Below are positions 29,442 to 45,388 of a DNA stretch of 64,000 nt, one piece after another. How positions within the stretch are numbered: position 1 is the first letter of the stretch; every line of letters starts with the position of its first letter. The position numbers were made by a program, and so were the translations under genes. The notes beneath the pieces were generated by a model that searched no databases, had not been told where the DNA came from, and saw nothing but the letters and a program-made list of their open reading frames with translations. Where the stretch lies: positions 32,001-96,000 of the IMG/VR virus record IMGVR_UViG_3300044733_003647. One strand, given 5' to 3'. This DNA comes from a virus.

Positions 29442-29669
29442 ATGTTAGTCAAAGTAGAAGGCACCAATCTGTATCGCGATACAGAAACCATGGCTTTAAT
29501 TAATAGAGACACCAAAGAAAAAAATGATTATATAATGAAGTCTCGTTTAATTAAGAACCAAAAAGATCAAATAAATACCGTCAAAGAAGAAATAGAAGTC
29601 ATCAAAGGCGAAATGTCAGAAATTAAACAGTTGATGATAAAACTACTCGAAAAAGGTTCAAATGGCTAA
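29442..29669 (+). CDS. Small coiled-coil protein
   Basis: MLVKVEG.NLYRD..T.ALIN...EI..IK..M.EIK.L; overlaps the next start. Confidence 0.65.
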   Translation: MLVKVEGTNLYRDTETMALINRDTKEKNDYIMKSRLIKNQKDQINTVKEEIEVIKGEMSEIKQLMIKLLEKGSNG

Positions 29670-32667
29670 TACAGTTACATCGTTAAGTTACGCAAACACA
29701 TTTGGTGAGTGGGTTGTTGCGACTAATAGTCTTATTAGAGAGAATAATGATCTTGCGGCAAATGATTATGTTAAAAGTACAGGTACAATTTACCTAAATG
29801 AAACTACACAAAACTCTCTTCAATCAAACGGAACTGTAATTATACAGAAAGAACTGCTTGTACAAGGTACAGGTTCATCTGCGACAGTACAAAATAATTT
29901 AAACGTTGGCAGTCAACTGTATCTAACAAATGGCGCACTAAGTTTAGTTGCATCAGGTCAAGCAAACGTTGCTGGTCAGATTAACGGGCAAGCTTCTGGT
30001 ATTGGTCTGTTTATTGCAAACAATGCACACATTGGTGGAACTACAGTTTCTGCTGTTAGACTGACAACAGGAGTTTTGCAGGCAAACTCTTCTGTTAATA
30101 CATCAAACGCATCGATTGTTAATACATTATTCACTAAAGATTTACAGGCAAATTCAACAGTTAATACAGCAACCGCTTCTGTAACTGGTACCACATTTAC
30201 CAATGTACTACAAGCCAACACATCAACAAACACAAGTAATGCTTCGATTGTTGGAACGACATACACCGGTATGTTACAAGCCAATACTTCTGCAACTGTT
30301 GGTACATTGCAAGCTAATACATCCACAAATACTGCAACTGCGTCCGTAACAGGCACAACATTTACTAATGTGTTGCAGGCAAATACGTCAACTAACACCG
30401 CGACAGCATCCGTAACTGGTACTACATTTACCAGTGTGTTGCAAGCCAATACATCGACAAATACTGCCACAGCATCTGTCACAGGCATCACATTTACTAA
30501 TGTATTACAAGCCAATACTTCTTCAAATACCAGAACAGCTTCCGTAACAGGAACAACATTCACTGGTTCATTACAGGCTAATACATCGACAAATACTGCC
30601 ACAGCATCTGTCACAGGCACAACATTTACGGACATTTTACAAGCGAATACGACCGCAATAGTTGGTACATTACAGGCCAACACAACTGTAATTGCACCAA
30701 CATCATCCGTATCTGGTACAACATTCACCAATGTTTTACAGGCCAATTCGACCGTCAACACAGCAACAGTATCTGTAACTGGTACAGTAATTACAAATGA
30801 AGTTGCAGCAAACACATCTGTAAATTCTCCATTAGTTGTTGCGAATAATATTACATCAAACAACACAATTACTGCAAATAATATTTTTCTTTCTAATGTA
30901 TTGAATGGAAATACAAGCACTGCTTATTTTAATAGTATACTTGTTCAAGGTGGTGGTCTAACAATTAATGGAAATTTTGTTTTAACTGGAACAACAGTTT
31001 ATACAGCAAATACATTCTTACTTTCCGCCAACGTATCAACCGCAGTATCCAGTTTCTACAATGTTGACAGAGGTTCAACTGGCGTCGATGCTGCATTTCG
31101 TTGGAATGAACCTGCCAAATATTGGGACACATTGAATGTCACTTCAAACACATATTATCGTGTATTGACTGATGAATATTTCAACGATACATTAACATCG
31201 ACTAGCACAACATCTGTTGCAACTGCAAACGCAGTTAACGCATTAAATACACTTTATAATACATCAAATACGTTCTTGCAAGCTGGTGTTATTTCTGCTG
31301 GTTTGTATGCAAACGGAGCATTCTTAAGAGCTAATGCTGCATATAATTCTCAAAATACAACTGGCACATACGCAAATAATGCATATGCACAGGCAAATAC
31401 AGCAACTAATAACGCAGCTGGTGCATCACTTTATGCCAATGGTGCTTTCATACAAGCCAATGCAGCGTTTTTGGTAGCAAATACAGCAACTAATAACGCA
31501 GCTGGTGCATCACTTTATGCCAATGGTTCTTTCATACAAGCTAATGCTGCGTTCTTGAGAGCCAATACACCAGATGCTATAGCGAATTCGGCTGCACTAT
31601 ATGCAAATGGTGCTTTTACACAAGCAAACACTGCGACCACTAATGCAGCCACAGCCGACAGTAAAGCAGTAACAGCTGGTTCTTATGCTAACTCCGCATA
31701 CGGACAAGCAAACACTGCTACAACCAATGCAGCAATAGCAGACTCCAAAGCTGTTACGGCTGGTTCTTATGCAAACTCAGCATATGGTCAGGCTAATACC
31801 GCAACTAATAATGCCGCAGGTGCTTCTCTATACGCCAATGGTGCTTTTAGACAAGCTAATGCTGGTTACGCTCAAGCGAACACTGCAACAACCAATGCTG
31901 CAACAGCAGACTCTAAAGCTGTCACTGCCGGATCATATGCAAACTCCGCATTCACTCAAGCCAATTCGGCTTTCTCAACAGCAAGTAGTGCATTGAATGC
32001 AAGTAATCTTTCCAGTGGTACTGTTCCTCTCGCTAGACTGAGTGGCATCACAACCACACAATTGAGTGCTAGTGCTGGTATTACGAATACACAGTTGTCA
32101 AGTAGCACAATTTCTGGTGTTTCCTTGGGTGGAACTTTATCTTCACACTCAGCGGGAACATATTTGGTTGGTGATGTTTACAATGGCAGCACATCAAGAA
32201 CATGGTCTGTTGATGCCACGACAACAGGTACCGCAAATAAAATTGCTGCAAGAGATGGTTCGGGTGACATATACGCAACAGTGTTCAGAGGTCTTGCAAC
32301 TAGTGCCAACTACGCTGACTTGGCAGAAAAGTATTTGGCTGATCAAGAATATGAAGTTGGAACAGTTGTTGCTGTTGGTGGCGAAGCAGAAGTTACCGCT
32401 GGTTCATATGGAGATAGAGCAATCGGAGTAGTATCTGCTCATCCTGCTTATATGATGAACAGTGAACTGGAAGGTGGAACTTATATTGCACTTAAAGGTA
32501 GGGTTCCAGTGAAAGTATCTGGCACTGTGCGTAAAGGACAACGTTTGGTTGCATATAACAACGGTACGGCTGTTGCAGCAGTGCCACATGCAAATGACGT
32601 TTTCGCAATCGCACTAGAATCGAGTGATGATACTGGAGTAAAACTAATTGAAGCAGTGATTTTATAA
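29662..32667 (+). CDS. Long tail fibre-like protein with a putative C-terminal autocleaving chaperone domain
   Basis: 1001 aa with 22-aa LQANT repeats and ANxAY helical repeats. C-terminal YADLAEKY...GVVS..PAY.MN...ALKGRVPVKV resembles peptidase G2/intramolecular-chaperone domains. Confidence 0.7.
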   Translation: MANTVTSLSYANTFGEWVVATNSLIRENNDLAANDYVKSTGTIYLNETTQNSLQSNGTVIIQKELLVQGTGSSATVQNNLNVGSQLYLTNGALSLVASGQANVAGQINGQASGIGLFIANNAHIGGTTVSAVRLTTGVLQANSSVNTSNASIVNTLFTKDLQANSTVNTATASVTGTTFTNVLQANTSTNTSNASIVGTTYTGMLQANTSATVGTLQANTSTNTATASVTGTTFTNVLQANTSTNTATASVTGTTFTSVLQANTSTNTATASVTGITFTNVLQANTSSNTRTASVTGTTFTGSLQANTSTNTATASVTGTTFTDILQANTTAIVGTLQANTTVIAPTSSVSGTTFTNVLQANSTVNTATVSVTGTVITNEVAANTSVNSPLVVANNITSNNTITANNIFLSNVLNGNTSTAYFNSILVQGGGLTINGNFVLTGTTVYTANTFLLSANVSTAVSSFYNVDRGSTGVDAAFRWNEPAKYWDTLNVTSNTYYRVLTDEYFNDTLTSTSTTSVATANAVNALNTLYNTSNTFLQAGVISAGLYANGAFLRANAAYNSQNTTGTYANNAYAQANTATNNAAGASLYANGAFIQANAAFLVANTATNNAAGASLYANGSFIQANAAFLRANTPDAIANSAALYANGAFTQANTATTNAATADSKAVTAGSYANSAYGQANTATTNAAIADSKAVTAGSYANSAYGQANTATNNAAGASLYANGAFRQANAGYAQANTATTNAATADSKAVTAGSYANSAFTQANSAFSTASSALNASNLSSGTVPLARLSGITTTQLSASAGITNTQLSSSTISGVSLGGTLSSHSAGTYLVGDVYNGSTSRTWSVDATTTGTANKIAARDGSGDIYATVFRGLATSANYADLAEKYLADQEYEVGTVVAVGGEAEVTAGSYGDRAIGVVSAHPAYMMNSELEGGTYIALKGRVPVKVSGTVRKGQRLVAYNNGTAVAAVPHANDVFAIALESSDDTGVKLIEAVIL
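30075..30800 (+). repeat. About 10 degenerate 22-aa repeats (LQANTSTNTATASVTGTTFTNV)
   Basis: Directly visible in the translation and as a 66-nt period in the DNA. Confidence 0.9.
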
Positions 32668-32738: not shown

Positions 32739-32749
32739 TTTTGATTGTT

Positions 32750-33265
32750 ATGATTACACTAGATGAGTTTGAAAACTTCTTACACACCGATTTGGTATAT
32801 GAACAGAAAATAATCTCTGTCATTGATGATCAATCGCGTCAAATATTTCTGGATGGAATTGGTGAACTATATAAACATACAGGCAGCACCATAAAACTGG
32901 AACAAATGGAAAAATACAGTCAAAGTATTTTTCAGAAATGCCAGAACCTTAGAAAAAAATACTCACATAATGGTCCGGTAACTTGTCATGCATTTCTGGC
33001 ATTCAAAGGTTCCAAAAGTTTTGGTTTGCATATAGATCCGGATGATGTTATAATTGAATGTATTTTCGGCTCAAAAACTCTGTTTGTTAATGATGTGAAA
33101 AATGTATTGAAAAGTGGTGACTGTATCTATATACCAGCCAACACACCACATGAGATCATTAATGAAGACAAGTCTTTGATATTGAGTTTTGGATTAGAAA
33201 AATTTTATGTTGAAAAGATAAATCATGGACTTAATGTTCTATTTGAAGACGACGGAAACTTGTAA
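32750..33265 (+). CDS. JmjC/cupin-type oxygenase
   Basis: SFGLHIDPDDV (HxD), G.K, and GD.IYIPANTPH (distal His), as in YcfD/ROXA-like cupins. Confidence 0.7.
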   Translation: MITLDEFENFLHTDLVYEQKIISVIDDQSRQIFLDGIGELYKHTGSTIKLEQMEKYSQSIFQKCQNLRKKYSHNGPVTCHAFLAFKGSKSFGLHIDPDDVIIECIFGSKTLFVNDVKNVLKSGDCIYIPANTPHEIINEDKSLILSFGLEKFYVEKINHGLNVLFEDDGNL

Positions 33266-34280
33266 CTTAAACTGTTTACATTGTTTTACCAGTGGTTCCA
33301 AAGGCGCAAAGATATATTGGAATCACATCAAGGTTGCCGACTGGTTACACAGAATGGCAGCACAAACACAATATGCACCACACGTTCACTTTGAATTTCA
33401 TGGTGGCGAACCATTCTTGGCAGATATATCTTCTATGCAGTATGTGTATGACAATTGCCAGAACTTATGGAAAAGTCAAAGTTGGGGCATCACAACCAAT
33501 CTGGCTTTCAAACTAGACCAAGAAAAAATAGACTTCATTATGGGTCCATTGGGTGGCAGAGTCGGTACCAGTTGGGATCCAGATATTCGATTTGCAAATC
33601 CTAAACAGTATGATCTGTGGAGAAAGAATGTGCAGACACTGATTGATATGGGTGTCGTTGTGAAACTATTCATCAGTGTAACTAAAGGCACGATTGCAAT
33701 TGAACCTATCGAACTACTAGAGTGGGTCAGATCACTCGGTGTCAAAGAACTGGCACTAGAAAGACTGACGATGAACGGCAGTGCCAAACAAAACCTACAT
33801 ATATTTCCCACAAATGTGGAACAGGACGAATGGTTTCTGAAGATGCACCATCAGAGTGAAGAACATGGTGCAAGAGGTTGGTTTGATAATGAATTTCTGG
33901 AAACGGTGTACAATAAATTCGAAACGGGTTTCACCGCAGGCGGAACATTCTGTAGAGATTGTGAAGAGAAGTTATTCACACTAAATGCGGATGGAACCAT
34001 ATCTGGATGCCCAAATTCTGCACCGGAGTTTCAATTTGGCACGATAGATGATGATATAGAAAGCCTTATAAATAGTCCAACCAGATTGGAAAACATTGCA
34101 TGTGAAAGGTCTAGGGATCCTAGATGTTATTCGTGTGATGTATTTGAATATTGTGGCGGAGATTGTCATCAACTAGAATGGGAAAATGATGTGTGTGGTG
34201 CACCAAAAAGTTTGATGAGATTCTTAAAAAGCAATCAAAAAAGAAAAGTATGGATATTAAAAGATGGCAACATTAACTAA
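33225..34280 (+). CDS. Radical SAM/SPASM protein 1
   Basis: TETCNLNCLHCF (CxxxCxxC), FHGGEP, and C-terminal CRDC...GCP...CYSC...CGGDC...C. Confidence 0.9.
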   Translation: MDLMFYLKTTETCNLNCLHCFTSGSKGAKIYWNHIKVADWLHRMAAQTQYAPHVHFEFHGGEPFLADISSMQYVYDNCQNLWKSQSWGITTNLAFKLDQEKIDFIMGPLGGRVGTSWDPDIRFANPKQYDLWRKNVQTLIDMGVVVKLFISVTKGTIAIEPIELLEWVRSLGVKELALERLTMNGSAKQNLHIFPTNVEQDEWFLKMHHQSEEHGARGWFDNEFLETVYNKFETGFTAGGTFCRDCEEKLFTLNADGTISGCPNSAPEFQFGTIDDDIESLINSPTRLENIACERSRDPRCYSCDVFEYCGGDCHQLEWENDVCGAPKSLMRFLKSNQKRKVWILKDGNIN

Positions 34281-34836
34281 CCCTATAAGAACACAAAACA
34301 TCGTTGATAGATTTGCAGATTACGTAACCGCAACATCAGCTTCAGGTATTTCATGGGGCACAAACGCATATCCATTTGCAGAATTTGATGGTGGATATTT
34401 TGGTGGTTCAACTAGTGGAAGAGCAATAGGCATAAATGGAGGAAGTATTGGTTCTTCCGGCACAAGAATTACAGCATCAAATATTTACAATACACTTGTG
34501 AATGAAACTGCGGCATACACTTCAATCAGGAACTTACGTGCGATATTGTTTGTCGATGGCGCCGGTGGCAACACCGGTTCACGCCCAACACCCGGTGTTA
34601 TTTACGACCAAACAGCTGTTGCGTACATGAACGGTAGTTATCTTCAAAGCATTGGTACACCAGCAAATAATGGTGTAGCTTCCGGAAATGTCGCGTCTGC
34701 CACAAATCTAGAATCATTCTTTAACACATTAAGAAGTACATATAATAGTGCAAGAGGAAGTACAGTGACTATACAAGTTAACGTCTGTCATGCTTCTTGC
34801 CATTCGTCATGCCATGGTTCGCGTTCTAGGAGATAA
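34264..34836 (+). CDS. Virion-like protein with C-terminal (CHxS)3 motif; candidate substrate of the cassette
   Basis: 190 aa, rich in G/S/T/N/A like the neighbouring fibre proteins and unlike the K/E-rich enzymes. All three Cys and all three His are in the terminal VCHASCHSSCHGSRSRR. Confidence 0.7.
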   Translation: MATLTNPIRTQNIVDRFADYVTATSASGISWGTNAYPFAEFDGGYFGGSTSGRAIGINGGSIGSSGTRITASNIYNTLVNETAAYTSIRNLRAILFVDGAGGNTGSRPTPGVIYDQTAVAYMNGSYLQSIGTPANNGVASGNVASATNLESFFNTLRSTYNSARGSTVTIQVNVCHASCHSSCHGSRSRR

Positions 34837-34838
34837 TA

Positions 34839-35558
34839 ATGAATGTCGTTGAAACAACTGCGCCAGTATCTATTGATAATTTAAAAAAATATTTCACAGA
34901 CAAAACAACTTTTTTTGTTATCAACTATAAAGACAGTACCTTAAAAGGTTCAAAACTTTTGACATATATTTCCAACCTGGACATACCATGTGATATCTCT
35001 TTTAAAGATTGTTCGAATGAAGAATGCTTTGAAATGATCAAAGATTACTTGAATACATCCATGATTGTTAATGTTCCATCTTTAGAAAGTTCTACGATTG
35101 CAATTCTTCATCAAGCAAAAGGATTGATACCGCCGATTGATAAAGAATTCATTGAACAGAATAGAGAAATTTTGAATAAATGGATATCTAAACTGGAAAG
35201 TTTGACTCTTTATAATATGCATATCATCAAAGATGATGCATTTAAACAGTTCGTTGATAGTTTTCCGGTTGATGATACAAAAGAAATGAACGGAGTTAAT
35301 TTCATAAGTCTGTTAAAACACAAAAATTTATATTCGTTCTTTCAGAACACAAATCAAAACAGTTTAAAATTTTATTCACACTATTTTAATGAGTACGTTT
35401 TTAAAGGTAAGAATTTATTTTCTTACTGGGCAAACGAAAACAATCCTTTATTTTTGCTTACATATGGTATCGCTGAAGGGCTGGTTAAAGAAAATGAATA
35501 CGTTGAAATGAAAAATAAAACTATTCAGGAGTTTAAAGATGTTTCATCTGTTCAATAA
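34839..35558 (+). CDS. Hypothetical protein of the radical SAM cassette
   Basis: 239 aa, coupled to both neighbours; no motif recognised. Confidence 0.7.
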   Translation: MNVVETTAPVSIDNLKKYFTDKTTFFVINYKDSTLKGSKLLTYISNLDIPCDISFKDCSNEECFEMIKDYLNTSMIVNVPSLESSTIAILHQAKGLIPPIDKEFIEQNREILNKWISKLESLTLYNMHIIKDDAFKQFVDSFPVDDTKEMNGVNFISLLKHKNLYSFFQNTNQNSLKFYSHYFNEYVFKGKNLFSYWANENNPLFLLTYGIAEGLVKENEYVEMKNKTIQEFKDVSSVQ

Positions 35559-36576
35559 AGTTTATATCGTTTCAGATAGTTTGATTGATATAAACTTTGA
35601 TAGAGTGGTGCTATCGGAGAAGTATGGAATTAAAATGTCCGAACAATTGGACAAAGTTTCATATGGTGAGTTATTAATGTATGCAGACAAATTTGCAAAT
35701 CTGGGAAAATCTTTCGATAATTTTGTAAAAGCACTACACGATCATAGTTCAAAAACAAACAAAAGTGTTTTGGTGTATGTTGATGACAAAAATTTTATCG
35801 AATTGACAAGTAATTGGTTAATTAGACTATTCAAAAATATGGATGCAAGCACTGCTTGGTTCGTTGTTGATTCTTATCTAAAGAAAACGAAGAAAAGCCA
35901 ATCTTGGAGAAATAATCACTCTTCTTCACAAGTAGAAATATACAAAGATGTGAGTGAAACAGAATTCAAAAAAGTATTTGGTGGTCTTACTATTGACAAA
36001 GTTGATGCAGTGTATACCACAATCAGAGAACAGATAAGTTTAGAATTTTTAGTCGCGTCTTATAAACATGATGGTTCAAACTTACCACAATTAATTGTTT
36101 CTTTAGAAAAAATTCTAAAAAGAACACTACAAGAAATATTGTTGGAGATAAAACACACTGTGTATAAGAACCAACATAAACCCAACTTTAATATTCCATT
36201 CGATGAAACATTTTTTGGCAATTCAACACTGTATAAATCTGAACTACTTGGTAAAGTTGGTGAAGCATCGAATGTTGATATCATAAATTCTTCCGAAGAA
36301 GACATTAAGAAATTCAAAGATATAGCCAAACAAGTCTATATGAATTGGGATAAATTCTCTGAGAATTCTCCCATCATCAAGAAACTGGACTTGCTTGATC
36401 TGCTGCGCGGCGGCTTAACAAAAGAAGAAGTCGATAAAGTTTTACAGATGGAAAAAGAAGATACATCGAACAGTAGAGTTTATCCATCTAGCGACGAAGA
36501 ACACATCAACATCTACTTGTTGGATCATGTATTAAATCAAAACTCGGAACAATTGAAATCATATCAACTTAGATGA
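35539..36576 (+). CDS. Hypothetical protein of the radical SAM cassette
   Basis: 345 aa, SD AGGAG, overlaps both neighbours; no motif recognised. Confidence 0.7.
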   Translation: MFHLFNKVYIVSDSLIDINFDRVVLSEKYGIKMSEQLDKVSYGELLMYADKFANLGKSFDNFVKALHDHSSKTNKSVLVYVDDKNFIELTSNWLIRLFKNMDASTAWFVVDSYLKKTKKSQSWRNNHSSSQVEIYKDVSETEFKKVFGGLTIDKVDAVYTTIREQISLEFLVASYKHDGSNLPQLIVSLEKILKRTLQEILLEIKHTVYKNQHKPNFNIPFDETFFGNSTLYKSELLGKVGEASNVDIINSSEEDIKKFKDIAKQVYMNWDKFSENSPIIKKLDLLDLLRGGLTKEEVDKVLQMEKEDTSNSRVYPSSDEEHINIYLLDHVLNQNSEQLKSYQLR

Positions 36577-37202
36577 AACAAAATGATTATTATGATTTAG
36601 GTTTTTTTCAATCGAATGTACCTGATGATATCTTGAAATTACTTTGGTCGGAAGTTTATCTGACTGAGTGGATGAATGATTCGGAAGAGGGTATCTACAA
36701 ACAAATACCTTCTTGGTACAAAAAGAAAAACAAATATGAATTGAAGAAAGATGGTTCAAATAGATCCGAATATGAACGTCTGATTGGAAAAGAAGTTTTC
36801 GAAAAGACTCCGATCACACTGATAAAAATTGGCAATAAACTTATAGAGAATGATCAATTTGATTTTTTCAGAACTTACTACAAATCACACGAATTAAAAT
36901 ACATTGATCTCTGGAATGGTTCAGAGAGTATAGATTACCATTTCGATACGATAAATGGATGTGACACGCTCATTCTGATTTATCTTACAGACTCCGAAAA
37001 GTGGTCGAGTGAATGGGGCGGTTCTATAACCATGAAGAAACAAGTCGGCAACATTTGTCATTATGAACAAAAAATTCTTCCTAATAATGGAACTATGTTG
37101 GTTATAAACAATGCAAACCCACTTGTCATGCACAAGGTAGAAAAACTTCATAACACATCAATAAATAGATACACCTTCTCTTTTATTTACAAGTGGTTTT
37201 AA
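36573..37202 (+). CDS. 2OG-Fe(II) oxygenase (prolyl-hydroxylase-like)
   Basis: YHFD (HxD), LIYL...W..EWGG, HKV (distal His) and RYTF (2OG-binding Arg). Confidence 0.85.
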   Translation: MKQNDYYDLGFFQSNVPDDILKLLWSEVYLTEWMNDSEEGIYKQIPSWYKKKNKYELKKDGSNRSEYERLIGKEVFEKTPITLIKIGNKLIENDQFDFFRTYYKSHELKYIDLWNGSESIDYHFDTINGCDTLILIYLTDSEKWSSEWGGSITMKKQVGNICHYEQKILPNNGTMLVINNANPLVMHKVEKLHNTSINRYTFSFIYKWF

Positions 37203-37203
37203 A

Positions 37204-38223
37204 TTGATAGCTGAACATGTATTGAATATACACAATAAGAGACCAGATACTGGTGAAATTATTGTAACACTGTTTGAATATTGTGATCTGAGTTGTTTAT
37301 TCTGCAACCAAGACCACGATAGCTATGAGGGTATCGATACAATAGTTGGTAAATTTGACTCAATTAAATTGTCAATTGACCAGCAAATAAAAAAAGGCAA
37401 AAAGCAAATCTCCATACACATGATGGGTGGAGAATTATTCTCGGATACAGTAGAAGATAAAGTATTCGACGACTACGCCGAACTCACCAAGAAATTACTG
37501 GCATACGGCAAAGAAATAAACATACCTTTAGAAGTTTCTTTCATTACCAACTTTATATGGGAAAAGAAACAAAGAATAAAGAAATTTCTGGACGATAACG
37601 AAATATCGGTTATGACTAGTTATGACCCGTCAGGTAGATTCAACAAAAAAACTTTTGAAGTCTACAAAAAAAACATACAAGATTTTAAAGAATATATAAT
37701 CAGTGTCAACGTCATTATGACGAAGCCAAATATAGATAAATTCATGTCGGACAATGTACCGTTTTTTGATTACTTGTACGAAAACTTTCCAATCTATTTT
37801 GATTATTATGGACCAGGAAAAAACCATGAATTTCTAATGGCGAAAGACATTGAGATTCGTGACTTTATGAAGTACATGTTTGAGAACTGGAACAATTGTC
37901 ATCCGTTCAAAACATTTGCCAATAAAACCGCAAACAAAATGTCATGCATGGATACGCATACTGTTATGCCATCTGGAAAATGGGGTGGTTGTGGTTACTT
38001 TGAGAATTTGGAGAAAGTTATACCTATTAAAGTTGTGACTGAACAACAATGGTTTGATAGTTACAATTGTTACGAATGCGAACACCTACAAAGGTGTACT
38101 ATGGGGTGTTTTATGAGCAATCACGTGAAAGACATGAGAACTCAAGACACATGTTGGTTAAAAGAAGTCTATGACTATGTTGATTTAAAAGTTGGAAACG
38201 AAAATGATATTACCATTAATTGA
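37204..38223 (+). CDS. Radical SAM protein 2 with Cys-rich C-terminus
   Basis: EYCDLSCLFCNQ, MGGELF, and SCM...GCG...CYEC...RCTMGCF...C; TTG start. Confidence 0.88.
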   Translation: MIAEHVLNIHNKRPDTGEIIVTLFEYCDLSCLFCNQDHDSYEGIDTIVGKFDSIKLSIDQQIKKGKKQISIHMMGGELFSDTVEDKVFDDYAELTKKLLAYGKEINIPLEVSFITNFIWEKKQRIKKFLDDNEISVMTSYDPSGRFNKKTFEVYKKNIQDFKEYIISVNVIMTKPNIDKFMSDNVPFFDYLYENFPIYFDYYGPGKNHEFLMAKDIEIRDFMKYMFENWNNCHPFKTFANKTANKMSCMDTHTVMPSGKWGGCGYFENLEKVIPIKVVTEQQWFDSYNCYECEHLQRCTMGCFMSNHVKDMRTQDTCWLKEVYDYVDLKVGNENDITIN

Positions 38224-39304
38224 ATTAAACAAAGATTTCATTGCCTCGGAGGCAATTCATTACGTTCAAAGAACATATACAGATTTTAAATTTGAATATG
38301 ACTTGCTTCGCAGAGACATACACATGGTCATCGACATATTCATGGGTGAATTGCATGTGGAAGGTGGTGTTTACTCCTATGATATCGAAGAAGGTAAAGA
38401 TGATTCTTACTTTCAACTGAACAGATACAAAAGGTCGTTTACAGTTTTCAGAAATCATTCAGATGAAACAATAAACTGTATACAATACACGGCAAACTTA
38501 ATAAAAGATGTAATCACAAATAAAAAAATTCAACCAGTTTACAATACACAATTTGAACAACTGTATGATACTAAACAAAAATTCAATGAAGAAAAACTAG
38601 GTGAATTTGATACGATTTGTGGATTGATTGTTGCGAATTCTGCCGCAGGTTCAAACAGAAATTACCATATTGATTTCATTGAAGAATATTTCGATAAAGG
38701 TTTCGTTGTGACCAAAATTCCTCCTCATATTCACGAAAGATTATGGGAAGAAGTCAGAAATACCAAATGGATCGATGCAAAGAAATCAACTTACAAAAAA
38801 GTTCCAGACTGGTATCACGAAAACGAAAAACATTATGTTGATCCTACCGGATATGATAGACCATCTTACGAAAGAAAAATTGGTGCAGACATTTTCACAA
38901 ATGCACCAAAGAGTTTAATTGATATTTCGGATGATCTGATCAAAGATGATACATTCTCACCTTTAAGGATGTATAGACCACCAAATGCCATCACAAAGTA
39001 TCTTCATTTCTGGAATGGCAGTGAGAATTCACCACATCACGTTGATGCAATCGATGGTTCTGACCTAATGGTTTTCTGTTATCTGACAGAAGAAAAGGAC
39101 TGGAAAGAAGAGTGGGGTGGTTACATTAATATTATGAAAGAAGTGAATTCAGAAATAACAAACACCAAAACCATTTTACCAAACGATGGTGTCATGGTAT
39201 TGGTAAACAATTCTGCACCAATCTTCAAACATGGCATTCGGAACTTAATCAAACGCGACATTAATAGATACACATTCATCTTTCATTACACTTGGACATA
39301 TTGA
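38204..39304 (+). CDS. 2OG-Fe(II) oxygenase with N-terminal extension (paralog of 36573-37202)
   Basis: WNGSE..PHHVDAIDGSD, YLT....W.EEWGG, HGI and INRYTF; about 160 aa of extra N-terminal sequence. Confidence 0.85.
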   Translation: MILPLIELNKDFIASEAIHYVQRTYTDFKFEYDLLRRDIHMVIDIFMGELHVEGGVYSYDIEEGKDDSYFQLNRYKRSFTVFRNHSDETINCIQYTANLIKDVITNKKIQPVYNTQFEQLYDTKQKFNEEKLGEFDTICGLIVANSAAGSNRNYHIDFIEEYFDKGFVVTKIPPHIHERLWEEVRNTKWIDAKKSTYKKVPDWYHENEKHYVDPTGYDRPSYERKIGADIFTNAPKSLIDISDDLIKDDTFSPLRMYRPPNAITKYLHFWNGSENSPHHVDAIDGSDLMVFCYLTEEKDWKEEWGGYINIMKEVNSEITNTKTILPNDGVMVLVNNSAPIFKHGIRNLIKRDINRYTFIFHYTWTY

Positions 39305-39319
39305 ATCTAAAATTTTGTC

Positions 39320-40390
39320 ATGGAATTAATTATTAAACCCACTGAAAAGTGTAACTTCAAGTGTACCTTTTGTTCAAGTACGCACATCACCGATGATAAG
39401 ACAGCGGAGTTGGATCACGAATATATCTTTAAGTTTTTAAAGAGATATCCAGAAACAAATACCATAATTGTTAATGGTGGCGATCCACTAATGATGAGCC
39501 CAGAATATTACTGGAAAATAATTGAACATCTGAATGAAATTGGTAGTGATGCTCGCATATCATTTACCAGTAATCTATGGCCATTCTATAAGAATCCCAA
39601 AAAATGGACCGAACTGTTTACGCATCCTCGCATGGGTATTACAACCAGTTTCCAATATGGTGGTGGTAGACTCAAAGGTGACTTGACAGAGTTCAGTGAA
39701 GAAGACTTCTGGAACGTCAGTGATATGATGCTGGACGTTGTTGGTTATCGCCCGGACTTCATAAGTGTTATCACTAAGGAGAATGAACATCTAGCCATCA
39801 AGAACGTTGAACTGGCCAAGGAAATGGATGTGGAATGTAAATTGAACTATGCGTTCAGTAGTGGACCTCCGGTAAAATTTAAAAACATTACCATGGGCCA
39901 ACAAGGGCAACCATATTTACTGGCATATATGTATAAAATATATGTTGAAATATGGAAAAAAGATTTGACAAAGTGGGAATATAACACAAAACAGATGGTA
40001 AAAAGACTGGTTGGTCATGCAACCACTTGCCCACAAAATAGAAACTGTGATGCAAACATCCGAACATTACAACCTAGTGGTGACTATTATAGTTGCGGTG
40101 CATTTGGTGACGATAAACTTTATCAAATAGATTTCGAAAAAGAAATGTCAGGTGAAAAAATATTTCCTTTGAGATTTCAACCAGAAATACAGAGCCTTAA
40201 AAGTTCTTGTTTCACTTGCCCAATGTTTCAAATTTGTAATGGTTGCAAGAAAACAATCAAAGATTTAAAAGACCATGACTTGGTGGAAGAACACTGTTCT
40301 AAAATGAAACTGTTGGCACCAGATATTATCGAGTCAAATGGAATGACAGGTATTCTGGAGCCTACACCGTATGTTAGAGAATACCCATGA
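39320..40390 (+). CDS. Radical SAM/SPASM protein 3
   Basis: KPTEKCNFKCTFCS, NGGDPL, and CP..RNC...YSCG...CFTC.MF.ICNGC...HC. Confidence 0.9.
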   Translation: MELIIKPTEKCNFKCTFCSSTHITDDKTAELDHEYIFKFLKRYPETNTIIVNGGDPLMMSPEYYWKIIEHLNEIGSDARISFTSNLWPFYKNPKKWTELFTHPRMGITTSFQYGGGRLKGDLTEFSEEDFWNVSDMMLDVVGYRPDFISVITKENEHLAIKNVELAKEMDVECKLNYAFSSGPPVKFKNITMGQQGQPYLLAYMYKIYVEIWKKDLTKWEYNTKQMVKRLVGHATTCPQNRNCDANIRTLQPSGDYYSCGAFGDDKLYQIDFEKEMSGEKIFPLRFQPEIQSLKSSCFTCPMFQICNGCKKTIKDLKDHDLVEEHCSKMKLLAPDIIESNGMTGILEPTPYVREYP

Positions 40391-41295
40391 ATGTTTCTAT
40401 TAATCCCAGTTACTTCTGTAACTTCAGATGTGACTTTTGTTATCTGACGGAAGAACAGTTGTCTGACCAGAAGAAAATAGAATTAGAAAAACTAGATGAT
40501 TTGTTATCACAGATACCAAACATAGAACATGTTGATTTGTATGGTGGTGAAATTGGTACATTAAAGAAAGACTACTTTTATGGATTGAGAGACACGATTC
40601 GCAAACACTATAGTGGCAAAATCAATATCAATACCAACTATTCAATGTTGCATGAAGGTTTTTATGAAGATGATTTCTACCTGAGTGTTAGTTACGATTG
40701 GGTAGCCAGAGAAAAGTCAGACAGAGTTTATCAGAACATGTTGATGAGCCCAGTACCCATAGCCGTACTGGTCTTGGCTAGCCCCAAAGTATTACAGATG
40801 GATGTAGATGATTTTATATTATCGATGAACATGTGTAGTAGTGTGAGAAGTGTGGAAATAAAACCTTACAGCACCAACCAGGCAAATCAACATCCCGTCA
40901 CACACAAAGACTTTGAGGAGTTTGTTAAAAAGTGGATCGAAAGCCCGTTACAAAAAAACTTTGAATTCATTAACGAATATTATATTGAAGATGTTCTGAA
41001 TGGTAACCGAAATGCATTCAGTGATGACCACATCTACATCACACCAAATGGTAAATTTGCTGTACTGGAATTCGATTTAAATGACAATGAATATTTTTTG
41101 GAACTGGATAGTTGGGAAGACTACCTTAAATGGACACAAAAAGAAAAACGAAACAACGTTAGTGATATCTGTAGAAGTTGTGAGTTTTATGGTAAATGCC
41201 TGACAGAACACTATCGTTACGTCAAGGATCTAAATAATAGTTGCAATGGTTATAAATTTTTAATAGAGTGGTATCGTGAAAGACTGGAAAATTAG
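40387..41295 (+). CDS. Radical SAM protein 4
   Basis: NPSYFCNFRCDFCY, LYGGEI, and C-terminal CRSC...KCLTEH...SCNG. Confidence 0.88.
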   Translation: MNVSINPSYFCNFRCDFCYLTEEQLSDQKKIELEKLDDLLSQIPNIEHVDLYGGEIGTLKKDYFYGLRDTIRKHYSGKININTNYSMLHEGFYEDDFYLSVSYDWVAREKSDRVYQNMLMSPVPIAVLVLASPKVLQMDVDDFILSMNMCSSVRSVEIKPYSTNQANQHPVTHKDFEEFVKKWIESPLQKNFEFINEYYIEDVLNGNRNAFSDDHIYITPNGKFAVLEFDLNDNEYFLELDSWEDYLKWTQKEKRNNVSDICRSCEFYGKCLTEHYRYVKDLNNSCNGYKFLIEWYRERLEN

Positions 41296-41671
41296 ACAAG
41301 AAATTTATCATAGACTCAACACCGATTTCGATGATGATCTGAAAACCAAATCGGTTGAAATGTCAGATGATATTATTGGTAATGCTGTTCGTTATTTCAA
41401 TGATCGTAACATAGGATGGATATATCCAGCCAAAAGTTACATGGTCGGCATATGTTATGCACGATGGTTGTCTGAATATTTTGGTGGAGAACCACTAGAA
41501 TATTTGAAAGAACAGTCTCTTCTTTTCGACAACGACCCATACTATAAAAATTACGAACTGGATCAAAAAACATATGATGAAATTCTGAGTAAGATCAATC
41601 ACTGGAACTTTGAAGAAAAGGGTTTGGTGCCAGATGTGAAAAAGTATTTTATGGAAGAGTTCATGTTATGA
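41276..41671 (+). CDS. Hypothetical protein of the radical SAM cassette
   Basis: 131 aa with GTG start, overlapping both neighbours; WIYPAKSY...YARWL...DPYY. Confidence 0.7.
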   Translation: MKDWKIRQEIYHRLNTDFDDDLKTKSVEMSDDIIGNAVRYFNDRNIGWIYPAKSYMVGICYARWLSEYFGGEPLEYLKEQSLLFDNDPYYKNYELDQKTYDEILSKINHWNFEEKGLVPDVKKYFMEEFML

Positions 41672-42240
41672 TTCAGAATTTGTGGCCAACACCATTTCTG
41701 AAAACGGATTTTTCGGAAGAAATAAGAAATAATCTTCTCAGTCATTTTTTAACCAAATATGACATGTTCAATTCTTCAGGTGATTTAAGTAACATAAACA
41801 TATTCGACGATGAATCGGATATTATTTGTAAGTTTACTGATGAAGTTGTGTTATCACTTTTTGATACATTTCTGAAAGAGAGTTTGGGAAAAGAAATCTC
41901 AGATTGGAAAAGTCACAATCTAAAAGGCTGGTTGACTGGTTCCGGAAAAAACTACGCCTCAAATTTCCACAACCATAAGGGTGCGGCAGTATCATCCATC
42001 TTTTATATCTTGTGTGAAGAGATAGATGTTGGTGGTGATATTTACTTCACAGATCCGAGACAGAACTCAAATAGAGGTTATGATAATCAATTCTCAAAGT
42101 GGTTTGATAATCTATCTTTCACACCAAAGAGTGGTGATGCCGTGGTTTTTCCAAGTTTTCTATATCATTTTGTTGAAACTTATAGGGGAAACATCAGAAT
42201 AGCTATGCCAGTTGATCTGTTCCTCTATACAAATGAGTGA
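41668..42240 (+). CDS. 2OG-Fe(II) oxygenase (TIGR02466-like)
   Basis: LWPTP, HNH (HxH), F.DPR, G..VVFPSFLYH.V and RIA. Confidence 0.8.
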   Translation: MIQNLWPTPFLKTDFSEEIRNNLLSHFLTKYDMFNSSGDLSNINIFDDESDIICKFTDEVVLSLFDTFLKESLGKEISDWKSHNLKGWLTGSGKNYASNFHNHKGAAVSSIFYILCEEIDVGGDIYFTDPRQNSNRGYDNQFSKWFDNLSFTPKSGDAVVFPSFLYHFVETYRGNIRIAMPVDLFLYTNE

Positions 42241-42324: not shown

Positions 42325-42666
42325 ATGGCAGCAGGATATCAAGAATTATTCATTGAGCAAGGCGCCGACTTCTCGACTTCTATCACCTTGGATGATGCAG
42401 ACAACGAACCTTTCGATTTAACTGGTTATCAAGCAAAAAGTCAGATAAAGAAGTCATACTATTCAAGTACCTCGGCAGCTCAATTCGTCATAACCATTCC
42501 CACACCAGTGAATGGTGTGTTAAGCATGTCTATAAGTGCAGCAAATACAGCAAACATATCTGCTGGAAGATATGTCTATGACGTTTTAATTAAAAATTCT
42601 AGTAACAATACCACTAGAGTTCTGGAAGGAATCGTTAATATTGTGCCACAAGTTACTAAATTTTAA
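42325..42666 (+). CDS. Conserved small virion/adaptor protein
   Basis: L.IEQGADF, DLTGY.A.SQI.K, GRYVYDV and RVLEG.V...PQVT; preceded by CTAAATA (42259) and ATAAATA (42287). Confidence 0.7.
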   Translation: MAAGYQELFIEQGADFSTSITLDDADNEPFDLTGYQAKSQIKKSYYSSTSAAQFVITIPTPVNGVLSMSISAANTANISAGRYVYDVLIKNSSNNTTRVLEGIVNIVPQVTKF

Positions 42667-42675
42667 AGGATAGAA

Positions 42676-43212
42676 ATGCCTACAGTAACTGTCTCACAAC
42701 CTTCAGTAATAAAAGTAAAGATTGATAGTCAACAGACTAAAGTCAGCACTATCAATTATGCAACAAAGTCGATAAAGGACTCTCCAGACGTTGACATGAC
42801 CGGTGCAGCCACCGGTGATGTGCTTGTCTATAATGCGAACACACAAATATTCAGTGCAAGAAGAATTGGCTCGGCGACACCAGTTACAGGCGCATTGTTA
42901 CCAACATCTACAAGAGCTTTCGATCTTGGTAGTAGAACACAAAGATTTAGAAGTATTTATTTGTCCGGTAATACCATTGATATGGACGGAACACAGTTAA
43001 AAGCTGACGCAGCAAATGGTACATTATCATTTAGTGCAGCTCCAACAGCCGAATTTCCAAATCCAATTGCAATTTTAATAACTCCGCAAGGAGGTTTTGC
43101 TCCAGTGCAAACTGTGGGTGGAGAAATACCCGCAAACACAAATGTACAAAGTATTATTGCAAACACCGCAACATATTTACAATTCACCGGTGGTGACGCA
43201 GGATTTTTTTAA
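42676..43212 (+). CDS. Fibre-associated protein
   Basis: DV......GDVLVYN, P.....DLGS...RFR.IYLSGNTI; ends DAGFF. Confidence 0.6.
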   Translation: MPTVTVSQPSVIKVKIDSQQTKVSTINYATKSIKDSPDVDMTGAATGDVLVYNANTQIFSARRIGSATPVTGALLPTSTRAFDLGSRTQRFRSIYLSGNTIDMDGTQLKADAANGTLSFSAAPTAEFPNPIAILITPQGGFAPVQTVGGEIPANTNVQSIIANTATYLQFTGGDAGFF

Positions 43213-43437
43213 ATGGCTAATACCGTAATACAGATTTTAAGGTCATATTCAAACGTTGCGCCAACAACTTTGGCGGATGGTGAATTGGCATATTCTTTTC
43301 TCGCAAACGCACTGTATATTGGTTCAAATACCGGTCAAGTTATATTGATTGGTGGTTCAAGTTTTGCACAAAACGTTACTGTTGCAGTCGCAAATACGTC
43401 AATTGAAACTTTAAATGCTGACGGTGGCGAATTTTAA
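43213..43437 (+). CDS. Small fibre-associated protein (GELA N-terminal module plus DGGxF terminus)
   Basis: MANTVIQILRS...PTTLADGELAYS...LYIG; ends DGGEF. Confidence 0.65.
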   Translation: MANTVIQILRSYSNVAPTTLADGELAYSFLANALYIGSNTGQVILIGGSSFAQNVTVAVANTSIETLNADGGEF

Positions 43438-43486
43438 TAAATAGACCGTAGGATTGTTACAAAAAACAACAAAAAGGAAAATAATA

Positions 43487-45388
43487 ATGGCAAACACCTC
43501 GATTAGAATTAAACGCTCAACCACAACAGGAACACCAGGGAGTTTGGCCTCAGGTGAATTAGCGTACTCATACCTATCAAATACGATTTTTATCGGTTCG
43601 CCAGCTGGCACCGGTGTAGTCAATGTTGGTGGTCAATTTTACACCTCACAAATTGATTCTGCAACCAATATAAACACTGGTGGAGCAATTGTTCGCCGTG
43701 ATTCAAACGGTAACGCAGCGTTCGGTACCATTACCGCAACATCGATCAATGCAACAATTGAAGGTAATGCGAACTCTGCAACACAATTCCAGACAGATAG
43801 ATATATTAATATCTCTGGTGGTGATGTAGTTGCAACTGCACAACTGTATAACGGTACTGCAAACGCAACATTAAGTGCATCTCTATCAACAGTCTCTGGT
43901 TTATCTGCCGGCACATATGGTGGTACCACAACAGTACCTATTGTTACTGTTGCTGCAAACGGTCGTGTTATGGCCATTGCAAACTCCGCAACCATCGCAA
44001 CATCTTTAAATATTCAAGGTGATACTGGTACAGATACAGTTAATCTTGCAACAGACACACTAGATTTTGAAGGTGGTTCTGGTGTAATAACAGCCGTTTC
44101 GAACAATAAAGTTACAATCGCGGTCGATAATGGAACGGTACTGAGAACAAACACTGCGATTCAAAGACAGATTATTGATGGTAACGTAGAAATCAGCGGA
44201 AACTTGGTTGTTCTTGGTACAGAAACAGTCATTAACGTTGAAACACTAAACATTGCTGACCCGTTAATTTTCTTGGCGGCTAACAACAACATATCGGATA
44301 CCGTAGATATTGGTTTTTCTGGTAACTATAGTGATGGAACCATAAGACACGCTGGTGTGTTCAGACATGCGGGCACAAAAGATTTCTATGTTTTCGATAA
44401 TTACACTGGAGGTCATGCTAATAACGTTCTTGATATTGGTGATTCTAGTTTCCGCGTTGCAAACTTACGTGCAAACTTAATTTCTCAATATGCAAACGTT
44501 GAGACATTACAAGTCAGCACACTGAATGTAACTACTTTGTCATTAACAAATGACCTGACTGTTCCTAACGGCGGTACAGGTGCAAGTTCCTTCACTAACG
44601 GTGCAATTCTGGTTGGTGCTGGTTCAGGCGCATTGACAACACTAGCAAATAGTACATATACCCCAACAGGTACAGGTGCAGCCAATAATACATTATCTTC
44701 ACTGACAGTTGATGCATATGGCAGAACAACGGCAGCAACATTCGAAGCAATCTCTGGATTAACTGTTGCACAAGGTGGTACTGGTGTTAACACATTCAAT
44801 GCTGGTCAAATTGTTGTTGGTGATGGCACCAACGGCCTGAAACAAATTGCTAACGTAACATACACTCAAACAGGTACGTTAACAACCGCAAATACAGTTT
44901 CCGCAATTACTGTAGATGCTTATGGTCGTGTTAGTGCATTAACATCTTCAGCAATTGCTCTAGGTGCAGATCAGATTACTAGCGGAACATTAGGTGTTTC
45001 AAGAGGCGGTACTGGTGCATCGTCATTCACAAGTGGTGCTCTGCTTGTTGGTAACGGTTCTGGTGCAATCAGTGAACTTGCAAACTCAACATACACAGCA
45101 ACAGGTTCTGCTGGTGCAGCAAAGACAGTCACTTCACTGACAGTTGATGCATATGGTCGTGTAACTGCCGCAACATTCGCAGACATTTCCGGTCTGACTG
45201 TTTCACAAGGCGGTACAGGTGCATCCACATTCACCACAAGCGGTATCGTATACGGCAATGGAACTGGTGCATTACAAGTCACTGCGGCTGCTGGTACATC
45301 AGATCAAACATGGTCTAACCAAATTCTGACAGTAACCAATGCTGGTGTTCCAGTTTGGTCTTCTGCACTAGACGGAGGTCAATTCTAA
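43487..45388 (+). CDS. Tail fibre-like protein
   Basis: MANTSIRIKRS..PGSLASGELAYS; repeated TVDAYGRVTA and L.V..GGTG units; ends DGGQF. Start set at ATG 43487 (SD AAGGA). Confidence 0.7.
   Translation: MANTSIRIKRSTTTGTPGSLASGELAYSYLSNTIFIGSPAGTGVVNVGGQFYTSQIDSATNINTGGAIVRRDSNGNAAFGTITATSINATIEGNANSATQFQTDRYINISGGDVVATAQLYNGTANATLSASLSTVSGLSAGTYGGTTTVPIVTVAANGRVMAIANSATIATSLNIQGDTGTDTVNLATDTLDFEGGSGVITAVSNNKVTIAVDNGTVLRTNTAIQRQIIDGNVEISGNLVVLGTETVINVETLNIADPLIFLAANNNISDTVDIGFSGNYSDGTIRHAGVFRHAGTKDFYVFDNYTGGHANNVLDIGDSSFRVANLRANLISQYANVETLQVSTLNVTTLSLTNDLTVPNGGTGASSFTNGAILVGAGSGALTTLANSTYTPTGTGAANNTLSSLTVDAYGRTTAATFEAISGLTVAQGGTGVNTFNAGQIVVGDGTNGLKQIANVTYTQTGTLTTANTVSAITVDAYGRVSALTSSAIALGADQITSGTLGVSRGGTGASSFTSGALLVGNGSGAISELANSTYTATGSAGAAKTVTSLTVDAYGRVTAATFADISGLTVSQGGTGASTFTTSGIVYGNGTGALQVTAAAGTSDQTWSNQILTVTNAGVPVWSSALDGGQF

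Follow-up and report, generated by a model that had tools for sequence, protein, structure and literature searches.

In the bacterial HXS antiphage system, HxsB, HxsC, and HxsD mature the HxS repeats of HxsA with a mass change of +8 Da (PMC13128918), and Ser, Asn, Ala, and Asp serve known cyclophane enzymes as beta-carbon acceptors (PMC11002830). Here, we describe a phage-encoded gene cassette that is reminiscent of both. It occupies positions 32750 (ATG; a TTG lies upstream at 32741) to 42240 of the window, by which we mean the whole 64,000-nucleotide (nt) stretch that was analyzed (positions 32001-96000 of the 156,657-base viral record IMGVR_UViG_3300044733_003647, which is 94% complete). 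It is composed of genes for four radical S-adenosylmethionine (SAM) enzymes (R1 to R4), a JmjC-type cupin, three 2-oxoglutarate (2OG) oxygenases (O1 to O3), three unknowns (U1 to U3), and a 190-amino acid (aa) protein with a C-terminal tail of Cys and His repeats, referred to below as the tailed protein. This is most likely a dedicated protein-maturation cassette: its genes occur together, and apart from the tail no portion of the variable, folded tailed protein is invariant. We consider it fairly probable that the cassette performs multi-step radical cross-linking and hydroxylation of this tail on a late particle protein of the fibre/baseplate region.

A preliminary description of this DNA had proposed 12 coupled genes on one strand, and all 12 open reading frames (ORFs) were confirmed on the + strand, with intergenic gaps of -41 to +15 nt and 4-nt overlaps at 36573, 40387, and 41668. 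The genes, the tail, and a candidate promoter are as follows.

32750..33265, + strand: minimal JmjC-type cupin, candidate His/Arg hydroxylase and core gene (Pfam JmjC_2 37.9 bits, cut-off 22; Cupin_2 33 bits)
33225..34280, + strand: R1, radical SAM/SPASM enzyme with 8 auxiliary Cys and no N-terminal RiPP recognition element (RRE; RiPP, peptide made by the ribosome and modified after translation) (family scores, Cys alignment, own clade)
34067..34074, + strand: TATAAATA, consensus of a T4-type late promoter, within R1 and ~190 nt upstream of where the tailed gene lies (sequence match, putative function)
34264..34836, + strand: tailed protein, 190 aa, 19.8 kDa, folded body with a flexible C-terminal tail, candidate substrate and virion component (predicted fold, tail conservation)
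34786..34833, + strand: tail, (C-H-x-S)3-R-x-R-R, residues 175-190 (column conservation, body-only search)
34839..35558, + strand: U1, conserved unknown, candidate adaptor or chaperone (next gene downstream from the tailed one in 75/75 loci)
35539..36576, + strand: U2, N-terminal domain like dual-specificity phosphatases plus a helical domain (predicted model, mean predicted local distance difference test score [pLDDT] 92.6)
36573..37202, + strand: O1, 2OG-Fe(II) oxygenase of a variable accessory family common with O2 (HxD...H...R; passes 2OG-FeII_Oxy_3)
37204..38223, + strand: R2, radical SAM/SPASM enzyme with 7 auxiliary Cys (family scores, Cys alignment, own clade)
38204..39304 (ATG, likely start; TTG at 38192), + strand: O2, 2OG-Fe(II) oxygenase with an N-terminal extension (HxD...H...R; passes 2OG-FeII_Oxy_3)
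39320..40390, + strand: R3, radical SAM/SPASM enzyme with 8 auxiliary Cys, the most conserved (57-64% identity to cultured jumbo-phage enzymes)
40387..41295, + strand: R4, radical SAM enzyme with 4 auxiliary Cys (family scores, Cys alignment, own clade)
41276..41671, + strand: U3, conserved small unknown (family alignment)
41668..42240, + strand: O3, 2OG-Fe(II) oxygenase, near-core and often multi-copy (HxH...H...R; passes 2OG-FeII_Oxy_5)

The tailed protein proved to be a fixed partner of the enzymes. When IMG/VR loci were retrieved with R3, the tail was present in 56 of 80; most of the misses were short contigs, and three were long-flank loci, of which one ends at U1 (L018), one is an expanded cassette (L008), and one is split (L080). 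When loci were retrieved with the tail, radical SAM genes were present in 79/79 and R1 was directly upstream of the tailed gene in 77 of them. Homologous cassettes lacking a Cys/His-tailed partner, which the preliminary description had named as an outcome contrary to its proposal, did not emerge from this survey. Among 53 loci with full flanks, R1, R2, R4, U1, and U2 were each found in all 53, R3, U3, and the cupin in 51 each, O3 in 48, and the O1/O2 family in 47. The cassette was found in T4-like, Atu_ph07-like, and phiKZ-like phages as well as in Bdellovibrionota, and relatives of R1 and R3 with 40-64% identity are encoded by the cultured phages Atu_ph07, Phosso, RSL2, RSF1, the FLC phages, S13, RsoM3USA, and pPa_SNUABM_DT01. 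A tblastn search with the tailed protein itself gave no match among cultured phages and its counterparts were located through synteny with R1; in all four cultured-phage records examined, the order cupin-R1-tailed gene is kept and the tail is canonical. Because gene order is conserved across such distant phages, a chance assembly of the cassette can be ruled out. We regard it as very likely that the tail is the substrate of the enzymes. It should be noted that another R2-like gene follows ~4 kb past the cassette of Phosso (L003:23597-24514) and that U3 of Atu_ph07 lies on the opposite strand 5 kb off (L001:23978-24400).

In an alignment of 41 tailed sequences, mean column identity was 29%, while the C, H, and R columns of the tail were invariant or nearly so. 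A profile search with the body only, leaving out the tail, gave 150 representatives; the tail is canonical in 129 of these, and at least one tail unit is present in 149, so body and tail are inseparable in the best matches. The family comprises at least 862 clusters at 90% identity. As had been described, the gene at 34264-34836 encodes a protein of structural-type composition, rich in S/G/T/A/N, with every Cys and His confined to the final 16 residues. Its body is predicted to fold with confidence (pLDDT 84.9), the tail being a low-confidence terminal extension after the last strand. Structural matches were limited to its own relatives, including A0A2L0UZF9 of Atu_ph07 (E 8e-8), and BFVD holds structural relatives of the body of 504-660 aa in Myoviridae sp. 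ctijX18. Fold searches found nothing comparable in the PDB (Foldseek E>0.7; best Z with VIA 4.1; best unrelated template modelling [TM] score in the Atlas 0.32), which does not prove a new fold. Two natural variants tie the body to fibre-type modules, namely a fusion in which body and repeats are followed by a Peptidase_S74 domain in place of R-x-R-R (L177:10001-10948, with a reduced cassette of R1, U1, U2, and R3) and another in which a Gly-rich domain precedes the body. Expanded tails also occur among relatives, with ~9 repeat units at L066:6012-6716 and ~5 at L077:7379-7936, and three loci (L028:585-1354, L055:3477-4237, and L093:6062-6879) have two tandem short tailed genes (125-137 aa) behind a fibre gene together with extra radical SAM genes. 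The body also has a variable patch at approximately residues 42-68 (window:34388-34467), where one lake sample exchanges a 78-nt segment in frame for 72 other bases and where the contigs of a second run break.

All four radical SAM enzymes have the N-terminal CxxxCxxC motif, which is 98-100% conserved in each of their families, as the preliminary description had recognized. Its additional assignment of SPASM/twitch-like Cys clusters to all four does not extend to R4, whose four auxiliary Cys form neither a full SPASM nor a classic twitch set. R1 passes the SPASM model TIGR04085 (35 bits versus a cut-off of 27) and R3 falls just below it (25.7). The four enzymes share ~20-29% identity over partial alignments, and all match PHROG 1802. 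Against models of individual radical SAM families, none of R1-R4 reaches a cut-off (best 49 bits versus 340-450); the best-scoring models are PapB, anSME, and DynA, with PapB the top NCBIfam match for both R1 and R2 and no good match for R4. Even so, the enzymes score best against peptide and protein maturases, above QueE, MoaA, and NrdG, the cofactor and nucleotide families that had been proposed as a decisive contrast. The only PDB sequence match of R3 is anSME (E 8e-5). In every case the radical SAM motif begins at residue 11-27, which leaves no room for an N-terminal RRE. A quick tree, built without an outgroup and used solely to show separate clades rather than donor or direction, placed R1-R4 in four stable, separate clades that each cover T4-like, phiKZ-like, and bacterial loci; therefore, the four roles appear to be old and not interchangeable. 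With its seven auxiliary Cys, R2 would have an iron site left open in the manner of CteB. A vitamin B12-dependent radical SAM protein, possibly a methyltransferase, is a common accessory in relatives and is absent here (L094:7255-8982, L180:7033-8694, L183:16420-17985, L189:4638-6569).

The cupin conforms to a JmjC oxygenase, with JmjC_2 above cut-off and an HxD...H triad in which H97, D99, and H137 are invariant across the family (H97-x-D99/H137) and K112 is 98% conserved. All four of the facial-triad oxygenase genes that had been described were recovered, with the correction that the gene at 41668 reads HxH...H...R rather than HxD. As members of the set they differ, since the cupin is core and O3 near-core, whereas the remaining two of the three 2OG enzymes (36573 and 38192) belong to a variable accessory set. 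Profile searches of the PDB with U1, U2, and U3 gave chance-level matches only, and an Atlas search with U2 gave no match. The predicted model of U2, however, matched ~35 entries of the protein tyrosine/dual-specificity phosphatase fold, although these are moderate matches only (best Z 7.2, root-mean-square deviation 3.8, 135 residues aligned). The catalytic CX5R loop is missing, as U2 of this phage has no Cys and none is conserved across its family, and U2 is a probable pseudo-enzyme, perhaps serving as a binding scaffold. R4 and U3 are fused in locus L180, so U3 is probably the partner of R4.

The composition of the tail offers a guide to the chemistry. Each tail Cys is followed by His (437 instances), Tyr (6), or Phe (1), with 3 other residues after extra Cys at variable positions. 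The residue two after the aromatic one is S in 367 cases, N in 63, A in 9, D in 6, and Q in 1, and is Gly in 0/446, while the middle position is Gly in 65/446. An aromatic residue at i with S/N/A/D/Q and never Gly at i+2 matches the substrate rule of three-residue cyclophane enzymes (PMC11002830); the same acceptor position is also i+3 from the Cys, which keeps a thioether in consideration. We propose that the tailed protein would be made late in the infected cell from its own promoter, and that R1 and R3, aided by U1 and U2, would act on the last of the four residues in every C-H-x-S unit by abstracting a beta hydrogen. That carbon could then be bonded to the His (or Tyr/Phe) ring located two residues earlier to give three-residue cyclophane-like rings, for which we see an even chance, or to the Cys sulfur as a thioether, which is possible but rather doubtful, and both bonds may form. 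Overall, an aromatic cross-link of some form is about as probable as its absence among the products. R2 and R4/U3 may perform a further step tied to the R-x-R-R end, and the cupin and 2OG enzymes may hydroxylate. As a result, a particle protein associated with the fibre/baseplate would acquire a rigid tip that probably resists proteases and is possibly linked between subunits. Its purpose, the weakest step of the model, might be to strengthen or arm a cell-contact appendage, because relatives of the cassette adjoin fibre genes in phages, S74 fibre genes in predatory bacteria, and type IV pilus genes on plasmids. A possible division of labor is hinted at by the tails that lack R-x-R-R, which represent three lineages by R3 identity (L030/L177/L190, L189, and L096). 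Their cassettes have R1, R3, and U1, while R2, R4, and U3 were not found in them, including the whole 99-kb L030 record (34% complete); this comparison left out the P0242 and P0218 contigs, which are too short. Such a pattern would have R1/R3 treating the repeats and R2/R4-U3 treating the basic end.

The claim that the phage multiply modifies a virion protein of its own gained support in its particle component, as the counterpart of the tailed protein in a distant phage has been detected in virions apart from its enzymes. In Atu_ph07, virion proteins cluster at CDS (coding sequences) 170-215, and Table S5 of that study lists gp170 at 31.89 kDa with 8 peptides, 35% coverage, and presence in slices 1-9 with a peak in slice 1, while gp164-169, 171, and 172 are all missing from the virion list (PMC6102473). 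The tabulated mass of 31.89 kDa equals the calculated mass of the Atu_ph07 tailed protein. By a hand count, only 2 of the 46 Atu_ph07 proteins of 25-45 kDa with at least 2 peptides peak in slice 1, the top gel slice, which suggests that gp170 forms a sodium dodecyl sulfate (SDS)-resistant oligomer. In the window, the tailed gene is preceded by TATAAATA, which we take to be the T4 late promoter. Among close viral loci, 70/70 have its TAAATA core ≤300 nt upstream of that gene, in most cases as the full consensus, versus 13/140 and 77/550 (14% background) control windows and 0/12 phiKZ-like loci. The possibility that the motif is a by-product of R1 coding was rejected, as it occurs in two frames and several codon contexts, also outside R1, and in none of the phiKZ-like loci. 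Thus, in T4-like phages the tailed gene is probably boosted late and separately from the enzymes, as expected of a structural substrate. Taken together, the tailed protein is likely to be a particle component in this phage as well, and we infer that the modification takes place on it.

The cassette is not exclusive to phages, contrary to what its first description implied. Five Bdellovibrionota assemblies carry the set amid ordinary cellular genes, and in two of them it adjoins prepilin-type proteins with S74 domains, once together with a prepilin peptidase. These cassette-adjacent proteins (L094:17699-18745, L095:4529-8271) pair a prepilin methylation-like motif at the N-terminus with an S74 chaperone at the C-terminus, as pilin/phage-fibre hybrids. 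In Bdellovibrio, S74 fibres are prey-recognition proteins (PMC10769870). More distant radical SAM enzymes (~25% identity) occur in 137 plasmid records, 130 of which are from Pseudomonas, and in all four Pseudomonas and Vibrio plasmid records examined three radical SAM genes lie behind a type IV pilus operon. In three Pseudomonas records and a Rhizobium replicon, these genes are followed by a signal-peptide protein of 118-135 aa with the same tail type, whereas no tail was seen in the region of the Vibrio plasmid (L185). On the Pseudomonas megaplasmids, which include pMPPla107, the tail reads as C-(H/Y)-x-(A/N/S) repeats, among them C-H-x-A and C-Y-S-N, and then R-G/S-W-R (loci with radical SAM genes and tail: L176:3986-7857, L187:8989-12872, L188:8986-13046, and L186:5977-9833). 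A non-exported product, as originally suggested, therefore agrees with the phage form and not with the plasmid form, in which a protein with a signal peptide bears the tail. A 208-kb contig filed under Gemella (L096:5861-13540), possibly a large phage of Bacillota, also has a divergent cassette, in which R1-like enzymes are present several times and the tail lacks R-x-R-R. There is an even chance that we are dealing with a portable system of tag and enzymes that unrelated large phages have in common with predatory bacteria and megaplasmids, and that equips a protein of the cell-contact apparatus with radical cross-links of the RiPP type (aromatic-to-beta-carbon and/or thioether, and perhaps linking subunits).

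The phage itself reads as a T4-like myovirus from the gene content of the window, which includes a single-strand binding protein, baseplate and neck genes, and terminase, followed by sheath, portal, and capsid. Lake metagenomes contain DNA that is near-identical to the window, no RNA data set was listed as containing the region, and contigs from four further lake samples jointly span the cassette piecewise, near-identically, and with no frame-breaking indels. G+C content is 34.8% in the cassette versus 41-43% in the flanking fibre genes and 41.7% in the tailed gene. The flanks are as follows.

29662..32667, + strand: upstream, 1001-aa repetitive fibre-like protein (PHROG tail-fibre matches, E 1.7e-8)
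42325..45388, + strand: downstream, LtfC-like fibre-assembly gene and fibre-like genes (family matches)

The described position between fibre genes is thus correct for this phage, but among relatives a fibre neighborhood is frequent rather than universal. The C-terminal domain of the 1001-aa protein also stands before the cassette in Atu_ph07 and Phosso. In agreement with the earlier reading, Pfam and PHROG family searches matched no protease or transporter family in the cassette. Elsewhere in the window, a 1695-aa protein of the baseplate region has at its end a run of Gly and a 'CC...' segment that is Hint-like or toxin-module-like (window:27200-27804); the 149-aa Cys-bearing ORF that follows it had no Pfam or PHROG match. 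A 185-aa gene between neck genes (window:58936-59493) reads as an HNH/NUMOD3-like homing endonuclease.

Other explanations of the tail and its enzymes can be weighed against these results. As its 12 repeat residues include three each of Cys and His, both equally invariant, and also read as CxxxCH like a variant haem-c motif, the tail could be a metal or cofactor site for which the enzymes build or install the cofactor instead of cross-linking residues, and the number of enzymes for one short tail as well as the accessory B12-dependent enzymes of relatives would fit. We consider this unlikely, as Tyr or Phe replaces His, at most positions in some tails, other tails lose a Cys yet keep H-x-S/N, metal binding leaves the strict S/N/A/D position unexplained, and the best family matches of the enzymes are peptide maturases. 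Since phage radical SAM and 2OG enzymes act in DNA hypermodification, they might also modify DNA bases or make a small metabolite with the tailed gene as a passenger. This is extremely unlikely given the SPASM-type Cys sets, the lower scores of the QueE, MoaA, and NrdG models, the location in virion modules, and the obligate linkage to the tailed gene, which holds in bacteria and plasmids too.

Two further explanations accept the modification and differ in its use. The radical SAM-matured HxS repeats of HxsA bind DNA in the periplasm (PMC13128918), the tail ends in an Arg-rich R-x-R-R, and the plasmid forms have signal peptides, so a modified basic tail might bind DNA or the envelope in a non-structural role, whether as an escort during ejection, a decoy against HXS, or a factor in superinfection exclusion. 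However, HxsA has no match here, the promoter is late and not early, no signal peptide is evident in the phage protein, and an S74 chaperone can stand in for the basic end, which makes such a role quite unlikely. It is very unlikely that the cassette makes a true RiPP, with the body serving as a large leader from which the modified 16-mer would be released as a small antibacterial, signal, or metallophore: the tail is core-like, C-terminal, and portable between unrelated bodies, and the tailoring set is typical of RiPP clusters, but the cassette has no protease or transporter and the body is a confidently folded domain that is found in particles and fused to fibre modules. Several observations weigh against cross-linking of a particle protein as well. 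The tail Cys is conserved as strongly as the His although cyclophane precursors do not require it, the chemistry of the radical SAM enzymes is unreadable from their families because all model scores are far below cut-off, and the covariation with R-x-R-R rests on few, incomplete contigs. Many IMG/VR contigs are near-copies, so the locus counts are redundant and non-independent, and some cassettes have no nearby fibre gene. The particle data come from one phage, whose gp170 is only 20% identical over the structural alignment; the Atu_ph07 stock was purified with polyethylene glycol and its virion list includes non-structural proteins, and reductant is missing from the loading buffer as described, so the peak in the top slice could be due to disulfides or a stable oligomer.

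To our knowledge, virions mature covalently by proteolysis or by self-cross-linking of the HK97 type, and in a few cases by glycosylation or hydroxylation. If tail cross-linking is correct, phage biology would gain a new layer, in which a pathway of ten genes with radical enzymes is devoted to one particle protein. This would be the first radical SAM-matured virion protein that we have found described, and it would involve several enzyme reactions that are new as well as a substrate whose fold has no solved relative. It would explain the radical SAM blocks that are annotated with no function in the cultured biocontrol phages RSL2, RSF1, FLC6, S13, and Atu_ph07 and, by analogy, the conserved pilus-linked radical SAM region of Pseudomonas megaplasmids (PMC13391042). 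New cross-linking chemistry could be drawn from four divergent enzyme clades that act on a tag of 16 residues. The idea is directly testable, as the phages are cultured and public virion mass spectrometry data may already contain the modified peptide. The enzymes of this widespread yet unstudied cassette most likely cross-link the tail, and this would be an undescribed form of chemical finishing for a virus particle.

A literature search found no description of the tail or the system. Radical SAM cassettes were noted in the host-recognition cluster of pelagimyophages (PMC7029224), a jumbo-phage survey does not contain the word 'radical' in its main text (PMC7824862), and the papers on FLC6, S13, and RP12/RP31 list enzyme annotations and no function. 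The preliminary description knew of no characterized system with this architecture; a radical SAM-matured HxS-repeat protein, although non-homologous, has now been characterized in bacteria (HXS, PMC13128918). Like HXS (TIGR03976-03979), the cassette combines a full-size protein and tandem His-x-Ser repeats with several radical SAM enzymes, a small partner, and basic residues beside the repeats. In contrast to HXS, its tail has three H-x-S units that are C-terminal and contain Cys in a four-residue period, it has no peptidoglycan-binding domain (no Pfam match), it has four radical SAM clades plus oxygenases, and it is phage-encoded and found in particles. HxsA (TIGR03979) had no match in the genome or among the 41 tailed proteins, and the cassette enzymes scored below cut-off for HxsB (TIGR03978, 36 bits versus 370) and HxsC (TIGR03977, 28.5 versus 267.9). 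The pQBR/IncP-2 Pseudomonas megaplasmids share related radical SAM enzymes (25%) and the same tail type beside an appendage operon in their 'arylsulfatase/radical SAM' region, with the differences of a small signal-peptide body and separate enzyme clades; the reports on this region call its function undetermined, and their passages on it name no substrate (PMC4989453, PMC13391042). The minimal radical SAM/SPASM architecture and 8 auxiliary Cys are shared with anSME, which acts on protein Cys/Ser, whereas the cassette has no sulfatase or CxPxR motif and its scores are 43-47 bits versus 349.

Enzymes of the triceptide/cyclophane group (HaaB, ScaB, YhhB, YxdB, MscB, XncB, OscB; PMC11002830) are similar in their SPASM domains, the aromatic-x-(Ser/Asn/Ala/Asp) motif, and the interchange of His and Tyr. 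The cassette differs in that its substrate is a folded 20-kDa protein with an invariant Cys before each aromatic residue and no protease or transporter, and the XyeB, GrrM/OscB, FxsB, YhhB, and AmcB maturase models gave 19-30 bits versus cut-offs of 310-445. The CxxxC spacing and the 7 auxiliary Cys of R2 recall the ranthipeptide/thioether maturases (PapB, CteB/SCIFF, QhpD), among which QhpD cross-links the structural subunit of a protein. In the cassette, however, no RRE precedes the radical SAM domain, the acceptor would be Ser/Asn at i+3, and scores were 14-48 bits (PapB 47.6 versus 340, SCIFF maturase 22 versus 425). With regard to Cys-x-x-x repeat targets (TIGR04114-type), the tailed protein had no NCBIfam match, weak matches were obtained for 1-2 relatives, and in one Atlas cluster (score 0.81) PF27846 is present in 25% of the members. 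Membership in the triceptide, ranthipeptide, and HXS systems fails on the enzyme models, and for triceptides and HXS on the substrate as well, but the cassette would work like all three.

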